In this document: piece after piece, positions 47,234-54,670 of the stretch
Numbering within the stretch: position 1 is the first letter of the stretch
Layout of the letters: each line of letters begins with the position of its first letter
Assembly (NCBI RefSeq): GCF_988242995.1
Contig: NZ_OZ547043.1
Length of the DNA stretch: 64,000 bases
Strand: one strand, 5' to 3'
The notes under the pieces: generated by a model
Databases searched by the model: none
What the model saw: only the letters and a program-made list of their open reading frames with translations
What the model was told of the DNA's origin: nothing
Made by a program: the position numbers and the translations under genes

Positions 47234-49990
47234 ATGACCAACTACAGCCTGCGCGCACGCATGATGATTCTGATCCTGGCACCGACCGTCCTTATTGGTT
47301 TATTGCTGAGTATCTTTTTCGTTGTGCATCGCTATAACGATTTGCAGCGTCAACTGGAAGATGCCGGAGCCAGCATTATTGAGCCGCTTGCAGTTTCTAC
47401 TGAATATGGCATGAGCCTGCAAAATCGCGAATCTATCGGTCAGTTAATAAGCGTACTGCATCGTCGCCATTCCGATATTGTTCGCGCGATTTCGGTTTAT
47501 GATGAAAATAACCGACTCTTTGTCACCTCCAATTTTCATCTTGATCCCTCATCAATGCAGCTCGGCAGCAACGTGCCGTTTCCTCGCCAGCTCACTGTCA
47601 CTCGTGACGGCGATATTATGATCCTCCGCACACCGATTATTTCTGAGAGTTACTCCCCCGACGAATCGCCCAGTAGCGATGCCAAAAATAGTCAAAATAT
47701 GTTGGGATATATTGCGCTTGAGCTGGATCTTAAATCGGTTCGCTTGCAGCAATATAAAGAGATCTTTATTTCCAGCGTGATGATGCTGTTTTGTATCGGT
47801 ATTGCGCTTATTTTTGGCTGGCGCTTAATGCGCGATGTAACCGGTCCGATTCGCAATATGGTGAATACCGTCGACCGCATCCGTCGCGGGCAACTCGACA
47901 GCCGGGTGGAAGGATTTATGCTCGGCGAGCTGGATATGCTGAAAAACGGTATCAACTCGATGGCAATGTCGCTGGCTGCTTATCACGAAGAGATGCAGCA
48001 CAATATCGACCAGGCGACGTCCGATCTGCGTGAAACGCTGGAGCAGATGGAAATTCAGAACGTTGAGTTGGATCTGGCGAAAAAGCGTGCCCAGGAAGCG
48101 GCGCGTATTAAATCCGAGTTTCTGGCAAATATGTCACACGAGCTGCGTACACCACTGAATGGTGTTATTGGCTTTACTCGCCTGACGCTGAAAACAGAAT
48201 TAACACCAACGCAGCGCGATCACCTGAATACGATTGAACGTTCGGCAAATAATTTGCTGGCAATTATTAATGATGTTCTCGACTTCTCGAAACTGGAAGC
48301 AGGTAAGCTGATTCTGGAAAGTATTCCATTCCCACTACGCAGCACGCTGGATGAAGTCGTTACCCTGCTGGCACATTCTTCTCACGATAAAGGGCTGGAA
48401 CTGACGCTCAATATTAAGAGCGACGTGCCCGATAACGTAATTGGCGACCCACTGCGATTACAGCAAATCATCACTAACCTGGTAGGGAATGCAATTAAAT
48501 TCACCGAGAATGGCAACATTGATATTCTGGTAGAAAAACGTGCGCTGAGTAATACCAAAGTGCAGATTGAAGTGCAGATTCGGGATACCGGCATTGGTAT
48601 TCCTGAACGCGATCAATCGCGCTTATTCCAGGCCTTCCGACAGGCTGATGCCAGTATTTCCCGCCGTCATGGTGGCACCGGGCTGGGGCTGGTGATTACA
48701 CAAAAACTGGTTAATGAAATGGGCGGCGATATTTCGTTCCATAGCCAGCCGAATCGCGGTTCAACTTTCTGGTTCCACATTAATCTCGATCTGAACCCGA
48801 ACATTATTATCGAAGGGCCATCCACCCAGTGCCTAGCCGGCAAGCGCCTGGCCTATGTCGAACCAAACTCCGCAGCAGCGCAATGCACGCTGGATATTTT
48901 AAGTGAAACGCCGCTGGAAGTGGTTTATAGCCCAACGTTCTCCGCGCTGCCTCCCGCGCATTACGACATGATGTTGTTAGGCATCGCGGTGACCTTCCGC
49001 GAGCCGCTAACAATGCAACATGAGCGATTAGCGAAAGCGGTATCGATGACCGATTTTCTGATGCTGGCACTTCCTTGCCATGCACAAGTCAATGCTGAAA
49101 AACTTAAGCAAGATGGTATCGGCGCGTGTCTGCTGAAACCATTAACACCTACGCGCCTGTTACCTGCCCTGACGGAATTTTGTCATCACAAACAAAACAC
49201 GCTTTTGCCTGTAACCGATGAAAGTAAGCTGGCAATGACAGTCATGGCGGTTGATGACAACCCCGCTAACCTGAAACTTATCGGCGCATTGCTGGAAGAT
49301 ATGGTGCAACATGTGGAACTTTGCGATAGCGGGCATCAGGCGGTTGAACGGGCGAAACAAATGCCGTTCGATTTGATCTTAATGGATATTCAAATGCCGG
49401 ACATGGACGGCATTCGGGCCTGCGAGCTCATCCACCAGCTCCCCCATCAGCAACAAACGCCAGTTATCGCGGTAACGGCGCATGCAATGGCCGGGCAAAA
49501 AGAGAAGCTGCTTGGCGCAGGGATGAGCGATTATCTGGCGAAACCGATTGAAGAAGAGCGATTGCATAATTTGTTGTTGCGCTACAAGCCTGGCAGCGGT
49601 ATTTCCTCTCGCGTCGTGACGCCCGAAGTCAACGAAATTGTGGTGAACCCGAATGCGACCCTCGACTGGCAACTGGCACTACGCCAGGCAGCAGGAAAAA
49701 CCGATTTAGCGCGCGATATGCTGCAAATGTTACTCGATTTCCTGCCTGAAGTTCGCAACAAAGTTGAGGAACAGCTGGTTGGAGAAAACCCGGAAGGCCT
49801 GGTTGATTTGATTCATAAACTGCATGGCAGTTGCGGCTATAGCGGTGTGCCGCGTATGAAGAATCTCTGCCAACTGATCGAACAACAGCTACGTAGCGGT
49901 ACTAAAGAAGAAGATTTGGAGCCGGAGCTGCTGGAACTGTTAGACGAGATGGATAATGTAGCGCGCGAAGCCAGCAAAATTCTCGGGTAA
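47234..49990 (+). CDS. barA: Hybrid sensor histidine kinase BarA
   Basis: ORF track 918 aa: two TM segments, HAMP, HisKA (H-box SHELRTPLN), HATPase, receiver and HPt domains. Confidence 0.96.
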
Positions 49991-50122
49991 CGGACGTCTT
50001 GTCGAGTCAAAATAGGTTCCGTCCAATGCCAATGCTGGGAGCAGCACAGACAGTCCCCTCGCCCCTCCGGGGAGAGGGCGAGGGGGAAAACCGGCCCCGT
50101 AAACCACTTCGTCAGTAATCTC

Positions 50123-50157
50123 AAACCGACTTCTTATGAAGCCGGTTTTGGTTTTCT
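50123..50157 (+). terminator. Possible intrinsic terminator downstream of barA
   Basis: Hairpin AAACCGAC / GCCGGTTT (one mismatch) followed by TGGTTTTCT. Confidence 0.4.
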
Positions 50158-50160
50158 GTC

Positions 50161-51501
50161 TTAACGCACCATGCACGGGCGCTTGTTATCAAACGTCCAG
50201 CCAGGAATCAGATACTGCATTCCCATCGCATCGTCTCGCGCACCAAGCCCATGTTTCTGATACAGCTCGTGGGCTTTCATCACCTGATCCATATCGATTT
50301 CTACGCCCAATCCTGGTTTTTGCGGCACCTGTACCAGCCCGCCTTTGATCTCAAACGGTTCTTTGGTCAGACGCTGATTGCCTTCCTGCCAGATCCAGTG
50401 CGTATCAATAGCAGTAATTTTACCCGGTGCAGCAGCGGCTACATGAGTAAACATCGCCAGGGAAATATCGAAGTGGTTGTTAGAGTGTGAACCCCAGGTC
50501 AGGCCAAATTCATGGCACATTTGCGCCACACGTACCGAACCTTGCATCGTCCAGAAATGCGGATCCGCCAGCGGGATATCAACGGATTGTAACGAGAGCG
50601 TATGGCCCATCTGCCGCCAGTCGGTGGCGATCATATTGGTTGCGGTCGGCAGGCCAGTCGCGCGACGGAACTCTGCCATCACTTCACGCCCGGAGAAACC
50701 TTGCTCCGCACCACACGGATCTTCTGCATAAGCCAGCGAACCTTTCAGGTATTTACCAATTTTAATCGCTTCGTTCAGCGACCAGGCACCGTTAGGATCG
50801 AGGGTAATACGCGCCTGTGGGAAGCGTTGCGCCAGTGCCACAATAGATTCTGCTTCTTCTTCCCCGGCCAGTACACCGCCCTTCAGTTTGAAATCGTTGA
50901 AGCCATATTTTTCATATGCCGCTTCCGCCAGGCGCACCACCGCATCCGGCGTCATCGCTTCTTCGTGACGCAGGCGATACCAGTCACATTTATCATCCGG
51001 CTGGCTTTGATACGGCAGCGGTGTGGCTTTGCGATTACCGACGAAGAACAGATAACCGAGCATTTCGACTTCGCTACGCTGTTGACCATCGCCCAGCAGC
51101 GATGCCACGTTAACCCCCAGATGCTGCCCCAGCAGATCCAGCATTGCCGCTTCTATCCCGGTAACCACATGAATAGTGGTCCGCAGGTCAAATGTCTGCA
51201 AACCGCGCCCGCCGGCATCACGATCGGCAAATGTATTACGCACCAGCGTCAGAACGTTTTTGTATTCACCCAGCGTTTTACCCACCACCAGCGGAATCGC
51301 ATCTTCCAGCGTTTTACGGATTTTCTCGCCGCCGGGAATTTCCCCTACCCCGGTGTGACCAGAATTATCTTTGATAATCACAATATTACGCGTGAAGAAC
51401 GGTGCGTGTGCACCACTCAGATTCATCAGCATACTGTCATGGCCCGCCACCGGGATGACCTGCATTTCAGTAACAACAGGCGTCGAAAATTGAGAACTCA
51501 T
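50161..51501 (-). CDS. gudD: Glucarate dehydratase
   Basis: ORF track 50161..51525; start set at [22 protein letters not shown] (446 aa), parallel to the gudX N-terminus. Confidence 0.9.
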
Positions 51502-51521
51502 CTTTATGTCCTTTTTCAAAA

Positions 51522-52862
51522 TCAATGACGGCCGAAAACGGGACGTTTACAGTCAAAGGTCCAGCCGGGGATCAGGTACTGCATCGGGCCCGCGTCGTTA
51601 CGCGCACCCCCAGGCAGACGTTTATAGGCCTCATGCGCCTTTTGTACCTGCTCCCAGTCCAGTCCCACGCCCAGACCGGGCGCATCAGGAACGGCAATTT
51701 TTCCGTTTTTAATCTCCAGCGGATTTTTGGTCAGGCGACAATCGCCCTCCTGCCAAATCCAGTGGGTATCGATAGCGGTAGGATTACCCGGTGCCGCCGC
51801 ACCCACATGGGTAAACATCGCCAGAGAGATATCAAAGTGGTTATTGGAATGGCAGCCCCAGGTCAGCCCCCAGTCGTCGCAAAGTTGCGCCACGCGGACT
51901 GCACCGGAAAGCGTCCAGAAGTGCGGATCGGCAAGTGGAATATCTACCGCATTGAGCATCACCGCATGGCCCATTTCGCGCCAGTTGGTGGCGATCATGT
52001 TAGTCGCGACGGGCAAGCCGGTCGCCCGTCGAAACTCCGCCATCACTTCACGTCCGGAGAACCCCTGTTCTGCTCCGCATGGATCTTCAGCATAGGTAAG
52101 AACATCATTCAGCCCTTTGCACAGAGAAATGGCTTCATCAAGCAGCCATGCACCGTTGGGATCAACGGTAATCCGCGCATCCGGGAAGCGTTTCTTCAAT
52201 GCACGAACAGTGTCGATTTCTTGCTCGCCAGGTAACACGCCGCCCTTAAGTTTGAAATCTTTAAAGCCGTAGCGATCCTGTGAGGCTTCCGCCAGACGCA
52301 CAACGGCTTCGCTGTTCATCGCTTTCTGATGGCGCAACTGATACCACTCATGGTTGCCCGGCGTATTTTCCAGATAAGGAAGATCGGTTTTGGTCCGATC
52401 ACCGATATAAAACAGATAACCGAGGACGGTAATAGCCTCGCGTTGCTTGCCTGGCCCCAACAGTTCGCAGACCGGAACATTCAGCGCCTTACCTAGCAGG
52501 TCAAGCAAGGCGGCTTCCAGCGCCGCCACGGCATTAACGCGCAATTCAAAAGTCCAGGCACCTTTGCCGAAGGTATCAAAATCGGCTGCCTGATTACCTT
52601 TATGCACCTGCTGAACCACTTTATTCAGGCGCGCAACTTCCTGGCCCAACACCATCGGAATAGCATCGACCAGTGTCTGATAAATCACCTCTCCGCCTGG
52701 CGCTTCACCAATGCCGGTATGCCCGGCGTTATCGGTGAGTACCACAATATTGCGAGTGAAATATGCGTTATGCGCCCCACCAATATTAAGCAACATGCTA
52801 TCGTGCCCGGCGACCGGAATGACTTTCATATCAGTAATAACAGGACTGGATTGTGTCGTCAT
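51522..52862 (-). CDS. gudX: Glucarate dehydratase-related protein (paralogue of GudD)
   Basis: ORF track 446 aa, collinear with GudD over its length (visible in the two translations). Confidence 0.9.
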
Positions 52863-52863
52863 C

Positions 52864-54216
52864 TTATTGCCCCGCGACAGGTTTCAGCTCGATACGCTTG
52901 ATATCGCCCACCAGCACCAGGTAGCTCAGTACCGCGATTAAGGCATGAACACCAACATAAATCAGCGCCCCATTAAAGGAGCCAGTCGTGCCAACGATAT
53001 AACCAATTGCGATTGGCGTGACGATGCCAGAAATGTTACCGAACATGTTGAACAGGCCACCGGAAAGACCGCTGATCTCTTTTGGCGCGGTATCAGCCAT
53101 TACTGCCCAACCCAGCGCCCCGATGCCCTTACCGAAGAAGGCCAGCGCCATAAAGCCGATGATCATCCACTCAACGTTGACGTAGTTGCAGAACACCATC
53201 ACCATCGACAGCAACATGCCCATTACGATCGGTGTTTTACGCGCAATGTTCAGCGATCCCGTGCGGCGCATCAGCCAGTCGGAAATAATCCCACCCAGCA
53301 CACCGCCGATAAAACCGCAAACCGCCGGAACGGAAGCCACAAAGCCCGCTTTCAGAATCGACATCCCACGCGCCTGCACCAGATAAACCGGAAACCAGGT
53401 AATGAAAAAGTAAGTCAGGGCGTTGATACAGTACTGACCGATATAAACGCCGATCATCATCCGTGACCCGAGCAGCTGTTTGATCTGCCCCCACTTCACG
53501 CTGAACGGCACTTTAACTTTGGTATTTTGCTGATCCATATTGATCAGCGCGCCACCCGCGGCGATGTACTCCAGCTCTTTCTGATTTACACCCGGATGTT
53601 GATTTGGCTCGTGGATGACTTTCAACCAGATAAAGCTGATGACAATGCCCAGACCGCCCATAAAGAAGAAGACGTGTGACCAGCCCACTTCATGCGTCAG
53701 CCAGCCCATAATCGGCGCGAAGATCACCGTTGCGAAGTATTGAGCGGAGTTAAAAATCGACACCGCCGTTCCCCTTTCCTGCGCCGGAAACCAGGCCGCA
53801 ACAATGCGACTGTTGCCGGGGAAAGATGGCGCTTCAGCAAGCCCGACCAGGAAGCGCAGCGTAAACAGGGCAACGATAATGCCGAATCCACTAAAAATAT
53901 CGACGAAGCCTTGCAGCAAGGTAAACATCGACCAGATAAAGATCGACCAGAAGTAGACGCGTTTTGAACCAAAACGATCCAGCAACCAGCCACCAGGGAT
54001 CTGCCCGATAACATAAGCCCATGAGAAAGCAGAGAACACATAGCCCATTCCCACAGGATCAAGGCCGATATCTTTGGCCATTTCCGAACCGGCGATAGAG
54101 AGCGTAGCGCGGTCGCCGTAGTTGAAGGATGTGACGATAAACAACATCACCACTATCCAGTAACGAGCATTCGTGCGTTTTTCCACACTGCTCGCAGCCT
54201 GACTTAAAGAACTCAT
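52864..54216 (-). CDS. gudP: Glucarate/galactarate MFS transporter
   Basis: ORF track 450 aa, MFS anion:cation symporter-like. Confidence 0.92.
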
Positions 54217-54670
54217 TGTTGCACTCCTGAAAATTCGCGTTAGCCACGCTCACTCTGGACTGCGACATCGCCAGGAAATCAGAGGTGACGTAGGGTGTTT
54301 TTTGCCGTTTTTATAGGTCGTTCGCCGAATACGGCGCGTGTTTATATCTGGCAATAGCAGTATAAAAAGCGCGCCATAGCGGCTCACCGTGCAACAACAC
54401 AACATTAATGCGTTCAATGAGGCCCAATTTTGGCATTAGCCCTGGACGGTGGAATCCACTTCACGGAAATGAAAACAAGAACAAGAAAGGAAGGGTTAAA
54501 ACGAAGAAATAAAGAAGAGTATGAAATGGATCGCTTGACTCCAGGCAAACGCCAGTAAAAATCCGCGCTATGAAGCAGTTTTTACTGGCATTTGCCTGAA
54601 AAGATTCGATTCAGCACCGCTAAAACGGCATTTACACCGCTAAAACGGCATTTACCGCTCGCTGAACGTA

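Follow-up and report, generated by a model that had tools for sequence, protein, structure and literature searches.

The glucarate locus of Escherichia coli holds two dehydratase-like genes side by side, and the question it raises is what the second protein, GudX, contributes beside GudD. GudD is the canonical Mg2+-dependent dehydratase of D-glucarate (and L-idarate), the enzyme class EC 4.2.1.40, and its product, 5-keto-4-deoxy-glucarate, passes to GarL, GarR, and GarK. To our knowledge, GudX has been a conserved E. coli enzyme lacking an assigned function for more than 25 years. Hubbard et al. reportedly observed in 1998 that purified GlucDRP was strongly impaired in the dehydration and epimerization of D-glucarate and L-idarate, which GlucD carried out efficiently, and the original suggestion, said to be theirs as well, was of a duplication and divergence in progress. 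The Enzyme Function Initiative is said to have deposited structures without assigning a new function. In the literature found by full-text search, no substrate or phenotype is assigned to GudX/YgcY, in agreement with an earlier note on this DNA, which had described GudX as a persistent functional gap with no settled substrate and not as a novelty. Both the glucarate locus and this gap are already known, and nothing here is categorically new. The use of glucarate and galactarate aids the growth of Salmonella and E. coli in the inflamed or antibiotic-treated gut (PMC3877842, PMC11077982).

The window, by which we mean the whole stretch of 64,000 nucleotides that was analyzed, is a piece of E. 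coli chromosome that carries relA, rlmD, and barA, followed by gudD, gudX, and gudP on the minus strand, and then yqcA, truC, and yqcC. The locus belongs to the E. coli core genome, being found in 5,425 of 5,426 complete genomes, and the region of interest is the operon gudP-gudX-gudD, through which D-glucarate is taken up and dehydrated. The earlier note saw here two collinear enolase-superfamily paralogues of 446 aa in tandem, a description confirmed by the open reading frames, the full-length BLASTP alignment, and the presence of PF13378 in both proteins. It also called gudX the second gene, which is true in plus-strand coordinates only: both genes run head-to-tail along the minus strand, and transcription passes through gudP first, then gudX, then gudD. 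The features are as follows.

50055..50085, no strand assigned: GC-rich palindromic hairpin in the gap between the convergent barA and gudD, with a stem of 10-13 bp and without a U-tract

50161..51501, minus strand: gudD, D-glucarate dehydratase, 446 aa, the canonical enzyme

51502..51521, minus strand: spacer between gudX and gudD, 20 nt, holding the gudD ribosome-binding site AAGGA; TGATTTTGAAAAAGGACATAAAGATG

51522..52862, minus strand: gudX (ygcY, GlucDRP), 446 aa, glucarate dehydratase-related protein of the enolase superfamily, GlucD subgroup

52863..52863, minus strand: gudP/gudX junction, 1 nt separating the gudP stop (TAA) from the gudX ATG; GGGGCAATAAgATGACG

52864..54216, minus strand: gudP, MFS transporter of glucarate/galactarate/glycerate, an open reading frame of 450 aa at the head of the operon

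54217..54670, minus strand: region upstream of gudP, the non-coding gap between gudP and yqcA, with the presumed (putative) CdaR-dependent promoter of the operon

The automatic call for gudD runs out to a TTG at 51525 and ends at 50161 on the minus strand; the true start is the ATG at 51501 (MSSQFSTP...), which is preceded by an AAGGA Shine-Dalgarno sequence and gives a protein of 446 aa. In a 100%-identical genome, PGAP has annotated the same two coding sequences, of 1341 nt each, under the names gudD and gudX, and it names the gudP product GudP. This transporter scores 538.6 bits against TIGR00893 (cut-off 395), which places it in the MFS anion:cation symporter family, and it also matches PF07690 (MFS_1). 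The translation of gudP and gudX is likely coupled. The hairpin between barA and gudD is present as a single copy in the window and was not called by the consensus terminator scan; its possible function would be that of a bidirectional transcription stop for the operon. A sigma-70 consensus scan of 54217..54670 returned zero minus-strand sites, and neither an Rfam scan nor a consensus promoter and terminator scan gave a convincing match within the operon. The plus-strand open reading frames antisense to gudD and gudX (308 aa and 236 aa) were treated as shadows of the coding strand and not as genes.

When aligned by BLASTP over their full length, GudD and GudX share 284 identities in 448 positions (63%), with 78% positives, 5 gap positions, and an E value of 0. 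Both match PF13378 (E 7e-48 and 7e-50), the enolase C-terminal domain, and belong to the enolase superfamily (MR/MLE-type), whose members combine a capping domain at the N-terminus with a modified TIM barrel at the C-terminus; PF02746 matches GudX. The two proteins fall on different sides of TIGR03247, the NCBIfam equivalog for "glucarate dehydratase", which has a whole-protein cut-off of 828.7 bits: GudD scores 899.1 bits, whereas GudX scores 745.1 bits, and for this reason PGAP gives GudX only the name "enolase C-terminal domain-like protein". GudD aligns over its full length with crystallized E. coli GlucD (PDB 1EC7) at 1029 bits, and the two are not identical. At residues 6 and 173, GudD carries S and K here, where K-12 GlucD presumably has T and S. 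GudX differs at six residues from the "glucarate dehydratase-related protein" of PDB 4IL0/4GYP_C (440/446 identical), and none of the six falls at a catalytic or clade-signature position. Near-identity to 4IL0, the signature residues given below, and the gudP-gudX-gudD order place GudX in the GudX/GlucDRP orthologous group. The gene names gudD and gudX proposed in the earlier note therefore stand, on the TIGR03247 scores, the matches to 1EC7 and 4IL0/4GYP_C, and the PGAP annotation.

A comparison of the active sites, which had been suggested at the same time, shows that all catalytic and ligand residues are identical in the two proteins. In the alignment, GudX agrees with GudD at N27, H32, T103, Y150, K205, K207, D235, N237, and E260, and also at E266, N289, D313, H339, N341, D366, H368, and R422, a list of GlucD catalytic and ligand residues that we take to be that of Gulick et al. 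2000 and UniProt P0AES2. All 17 positions belong to a set of 162 columns that show no variation in either clade (119 sequences). Both proteins carry the K-x-K motif, the His339-Asp313 dyad, and the Mg2+ ligands Asp235, Glu260, and Asn289, and Glu266 is likewise conserved in the two. They are thus members of the GlucD subgroup, the defining features of which (K205/K207, His339-Asp313, and the Mg2+ ligands) we presume to be those of the same two sources.

The differences between GudD and GudX are densest at residues 61-120 and 141-180, in the capping domain, where GudX, relative to GudD, has gained two residues after position 88 and lost T108-T109. The signature of the GudX clade consists, in GudX numbering, of W103, E106, N110, N293, A321, C337, and P417, all of which are present here. 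The divergence is asymmetric when measured against a baseline of 250 columns with a conservation of at least 90% among 38 stand-alone GlucDs: the GudX clade has replaced 22 of these columns, mostly by residues that are themselves fixed, while only 2 have been replaced in the clade of partnered GudDs. In GudX, the substitutions affect the loop with N27 and H32 (L28I, S29G, P34A), the loop with T103 (R94F, R99K, Q102W, D105E, H111N, T114A), residues adjoining the metal and catalytic positions (L234V, A257T, D294N, S322A, S338C), and residues adjoining R422 (G418P, L419x). Of the replaced sites, 12/21 lie five residues or fewer from a ligand residue, compared with 31% expected (p=0.013), which is a modest enrichment. 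Judged by proximity to ligand residues along the sequence, the changes appear to cluster, to a modest degree, in the loops capping the active site and at second-shell positions.

Purifying selection on gudX is as strong as that on gudD. In pairwise Nei-Gojobori comparisons against 22 species, dN/dS is 0.02-0.09 for gudX and 0.01-0.11 for gudD, and the ratio of dN in gudX to dN in gudD ranges from 0.8 to 1.7. Between the paralogues themselves, dS is 1.8 and dN is 0.29, with a nucleotide identity of 65%. Gene conversion was considered as the origin of a block of 27 identical residues and was ruled out, given that synonymous sites there have diverged as they have elsewhere. In the block of residues 259-288, protein identity is 97% and third-position identity is just 0.41, and the longest identical nucleotide run is 14; a third-position identity of 41% and so short a maximum run exclude gene conversion and indicate that selection holds the protein identity.

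How far this pair extends beyond E. coli was seen in a scan of one genome per species, which returned 80 loci and in which a protein closer to GudX than to GudD was called GudX-type. Such proteins occur in Enterobacteriaceae, Erwiniaceae, Pectobacteriaceae, Yersiniaceae, Budviciaceae, Pasteurellaceae, and Orbaceae, as well as in one betaproteobacterium, Paludibacterium, and more distant ones were found in one Halomonas genome and one proteobacterial MAG. A GudD-type gene lies immediately downstream on the same strand in 39 of the 44 GudX-type loci, with a median gap of 20 nt in these 39 (range 1-84 nt), and in 39 of 44 loci of other species gudX is directly preceded by a gudP-like gene, mostly at a distance of -4 to +13 nt. 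For instance, the gudX-gudD tandem is present in Cricetibacter, a member of the Pasteurellaceae (L033). Among complete E. coli genomes, gudX is full-length in 5,408/5,426 and gudD in 5,412/5,426.

The loci that depart from this arrangement are of several kinds. In L030, GudD is encoded about 5.5 kb upstream of the GudX-type gene; in L036, it is on the opposite strand, within about 5.5 kb; L005 is a truncated locus, and L031 is an X/D chimera. The GudX-like gene of Halomonas (L042), which is alone in its 13-kb locus, is the sole exception left unexplained. The chimera, from Pantoea stewartii, is a single gene in which the N-terminal two-thirds are GudX-type and the C-terminal third is GudD-type; its crossover is near residue 285, within the block of highest conservation, and it is followed by garL, garR, and garK. 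A different recombination is found in the E. coli isolate 38I23CPO002 (L082), where a crossover at codons 16-18 has left GudD with the N-terminus of GudX and has effectively deleted gudX. These rare natural deletions and fusions indicate that GudX is dispensable for viability, and the P. stewartii and 38I23CPO002 recombinants would be useful natural experiments.

In a neighbor-joining tree, the GudX-type clade, which covers Enterobacterales, Pasteurellaceae, Orbaceae, and a betaproteobacterium, has 84% bootstrap support, and the branching order within it is matched by that of the partnered GudDs. Stand-alone GlucDs, encoded at loci without a GudX partner in Pseudomonas, Bacillus, Paenibacillus, Bradyrhizobium, Variovorax, Acinetobacter, an actinomycete, and others, share 70-77% identity with GudD and only 63-66% with GudX. 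Rooting the tree with distant representatives was tried and dropped, as the outgroups were not monophyletic and the placement of GudX outside all GlucDs had only 18% support; the position of the GudX clade relative to the canonical GlucDs possibly reflects long-branch attraction. We therefore claim no more than that the duplication took place before Enterobacterales, Pasteurellaceae, and Orbaceae diverged, a conclusion that is robust. GudX is an old and selectively maintained paralogue, neither a recent copy nor a decaying one.

Published work on related bacteria bears on the pathway as a whole. In Salmonella, the operon is gudT-ygcY-gudD, driven by the CdaR-activated PgudTYD promoter, and the function of YgcY is not addressed in that work (PMC11077982). 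S. Paratyphi A is reported to carry gudT, ygcY, gudD, and garD only as pseudogenes (PMC11077982), so ygcY decays along with its pathway. Plasmid-borne GudD alone restored growth of Salmonella Typhi on glucarate (PMC11077982), a result that is uninformative on the need for GudX, since the strain keeps its chromosomal ygcY. In a Tn-seq study of Dickeya solani, gudX and gudD were both fitness genes on galactarate, with gudX listed without an assigned function (PMC10202176). An action of GudX on galactarate was considered on this basis and rejected, as the insertions probably have a polar effect on garL; this is the simplest account because the D. solani operon runs from gudP-gudX-gudD into garL-garR-garK on one strand, with garD located separately (PMC10202176).

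What, then, is GudX likely to do? An intact and invariant catalytic set, constraint like that on gudD, and frozen changes in the lid and second shell point to a working but specialized protein. Given the near-obligate gudP-gudX-gudD order, the tiny gaps between the genes, and PDB 4GYP, which contains both the GlucD (1EC7) and GlucDRP sequences, the best-supported model is one in which the two proteins share a role in hexarate catabolism. Our preferred reading, to which we give a probability of roughly 45%, is that GudX takes part in hexarate catabolism as a specialized partner of GudD that is itself equipped for catalysis, probably working in mixed tetramers. GudP would import the substrate, and GudX, which would be co-translated with GudD from one mRNA, would act on that substrate in the same pathway as GudD; the two proteins would probably assemble into mixed tetramers, in which the altered lid of GudX may change the binding or processing of hexarate substrates. 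GudX is unlikely to be another glucarate dehydratase that acts on its own. On our preferred reading, a GudD-GudX heteromer would be the physiological form, and GudX would be catalytically active in it. The 4GYP deposit shows that the two proteins crystallize together; this co-crystal by itself proves neither an in vivo heteromer nor a functional consequence. A narrower proposal, which we hold to be rather doubtful, is that GudX is a true catalyst only on an as yet untried substrate or only within mixed GudD/GudX tetramers. Candidate substrates include D-glucaro-1,4-lactone, D-glucaro-6,3-lactone, and a modified hexarate of the gut.

The main rival to a partner of GudD is an independent dehydratase or epimerase for another acid sugar or hexarate derivative that enters through GudP, which is a possibility of some weight, even if we consider it unlikely. 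Candidate substrates would be another hexarate stereoisomer or a glucarate lactone, with the product feeding GarL, GarR, and GarK. A complete catalytic apparatus under strong purifying selection is what one would expect of a working catalyst, and the replacement of 22 otherwise universal positions, many of them in loops bearing substrate ligands (those of the 20s and the 90s-110s and the R422 segment), would suit a new specificity, as would a score below the glucarate dehydratase equivalog cut-off; the Halomonas gene, moreover, stands alone. Nevertheless, the residues that contact the substrate directly are all unchanged, which points to a glucarate-like ligand, GudX is almost never encoded without an adjoining GudD, a pairing that such an enzyme would not require, and the literature found contains no such substrate. 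The result attributed to Hubbard et al. 1998 fits a partner role and a role on another substrate alike, without distinguishing between them.

It seems improbable to us that GudX is a non-catalytic partner of GudD, that is, a pseudoenzyme, stabilizer, or regulator that binds glucarate without turning it over. Its co-crystallization with GudD (4GYP), the obligate adjacency and co-translation of the two genes, and the low in vitro activity that Hubbard et al. reportedly saw in 1998 would all agree with such a role. However, pseudoenzymes normally lose their catalytic residues, whereas the K-x-K motif, the His-Asp dyad, and all the metal ligands of GudX are invariant in 41 species, and the stand-alone GlucDs of most phyla work without a partner of this kind. 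Finally, a redundant, low-activity duplicate of GudD, still diverging or drifting towards loss, could be read into the 63% identity, the tandem position, the equal length, and the rare natural deletions and fusions, but this reading is strongly disfavored and has very little chance of being right, contradicted as it is by a duplication older than the Enterobacterales/Pasteurellaceae/Orbaceae split, by dN/dS values for gudX as low as those for gudD, by clade-specific substitutions that are fixed and not drifting, and by a retention of 99.7% in E. coli, equal to that of gudD.

If GudX is indeed a true catalyst only on an untried substrate or only within mixed tetramers, the Enterobacterales would have in their glucarate operon the genes for an enzyme of two subunits whose active sites are hybrid, or else for a second, new reaction. 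The analysis narrows the GudX problem to an ancient, tightly constrained protein with a complete active site that is tied to GudD, and the short, defined list of its differences points to concrete mutants and assays. The findings also speak against metabolic models and annotations that dismiss GudX as a redundant duplicate.

Several known systems can be set beside this locus. The GudD/GlucD of E. coli in PDB entries 1EC7, 1EC8, 1EC9, 1ECQ, 1JCT, and 1JDF is the same enzyme as that encoded by gudD in the window. The GudX of E. coli K-12 (YgcY, GlucDRP, b2788; 4IL0 and chains C/D of 4GYP) is likewise the product of the same gene, with the same length and the same gudP and gudD flanks, and it differs from the protein in the window (window residue first) by T2A, E58D, L164V, K379Q, G402E, and C440R. 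Farther away, the "mandelate racemase/muconate lactonizing protein" of Actinobacillus succinogenes (3N6H, 3N6J, 3PFR), from the Pasteurellaceae, is a GudX-type orthologue with about 75% identity to GudX; it scores 784 bits against GudX and 626 against GudD, and it bears the GudX signature. Stand-alone GlucDs, such as that of PDB 1BQG, belong to the same subgroup as GudD and GudX. With respect to the canonical GlucD of E. coli, GudX shares the fold and all of the catalytic, metal, and ligand residues, and it is set apart by some 22 substitutions.

Genes composed of parts of gudX and of gudD were found at the following loci:

L082:2232-3569, minus strand, gudX-gudD fusion annotated as gudD, E. 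coli isolate 38I23CPO002 (NZ_CM148361.1)
L031:6001-7338, gudX/gudD chimera, the one GlucD-family gene at this locus, Pantoea stewartii subsp. stewartii CCUG 26359 (NZ_VZPF01000011.1)

The first of these is a near-precise natural deletion of gudX, in which gudD, preceded by the first ~16 codons of gudX, lies directly after gudP, and a single breakpoint fits 434 of the 462 informative sites. Full-length gudX is absent from about 10 to 18 of 5,426 E. coli genomes. The Pantoea chimera, flanked by gudP on one side and garL-garR-garK on the other, is GudX-type up to approximately residue 285 and GudD-type C-terminal to it, with a single breakpoint fitting 265 of 344 informative nucleotide sites; it looks like a natural recombination deletion inside the most conserved block common to the two paralogues. 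Several database entries that match GudX strongly are 583 to 690 aa long (P0001-P0005, P0007, and P0010), and these are probably annotation artefacts or else gudX-gudD fusions generated by read-through or frameshift.

Over positions 49900-54600 (4.7 kb), identity to the window reaches 99% or more in only 13 of the 5,425 complete genomes of E. coli and is 95-99% in most, and gudX and gudD each have a dS of 0.42 relative to L027, the representative of the species E. coli. Thus, the window belongs to a lineage that has been sequenced less often, or to an allele-divergent region. Six residues distinguish its GudX from the K-12 protein, among them G402 and C440, which in K-12 are E and R, respectively.

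Three further features were noted within and beside the gud genes of the window:

50055-50085, convergent barA/gudD gap, perfect GC-rich palindrome CCCCTCGCCCCTCCGGGGAGAGGGCGAGGGG
50602-51528, plus strand, 308-aa antisense ORF opposite gudD
51525-52235, plus strand, 236-aa antisense ORF opposite gudX

The palindrome, present as a single copy in the 64-kb window, forms a strong hairpin lacking a U-tract and was passed over by the terminator scan. A repeat element or a stop acting in both directions are possible roles for it. Both antisense ORFs are probably shadow ORFs arising from codon bias.

Outside these arrangements, one further gene stands by itself:

L042:6001-7341, GudX-like gene, Halomonas eurihalina

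Its product is 67% identical to GudX vs 61% to GudD and has most of the GudX signature residues. Neither a GudD-type nor a gudP-like gene was found in the 13-kb locus, making this the only GudX-type gene, among the GudX-type loci examined, with no partner nearby. Lucifera butyrica has two GudD-type genes in tandem (L057:4512-7326), apparently independent, and the proteobacterial MAG ZJ4.bin29 has a deeply branching tandem in which a GudX-like gene precedes a GudD-like one (L039:6001-8707). Given these two cases, tandem duplication of GlucD genes seems to have arisen, or to have been transferred, more than once.
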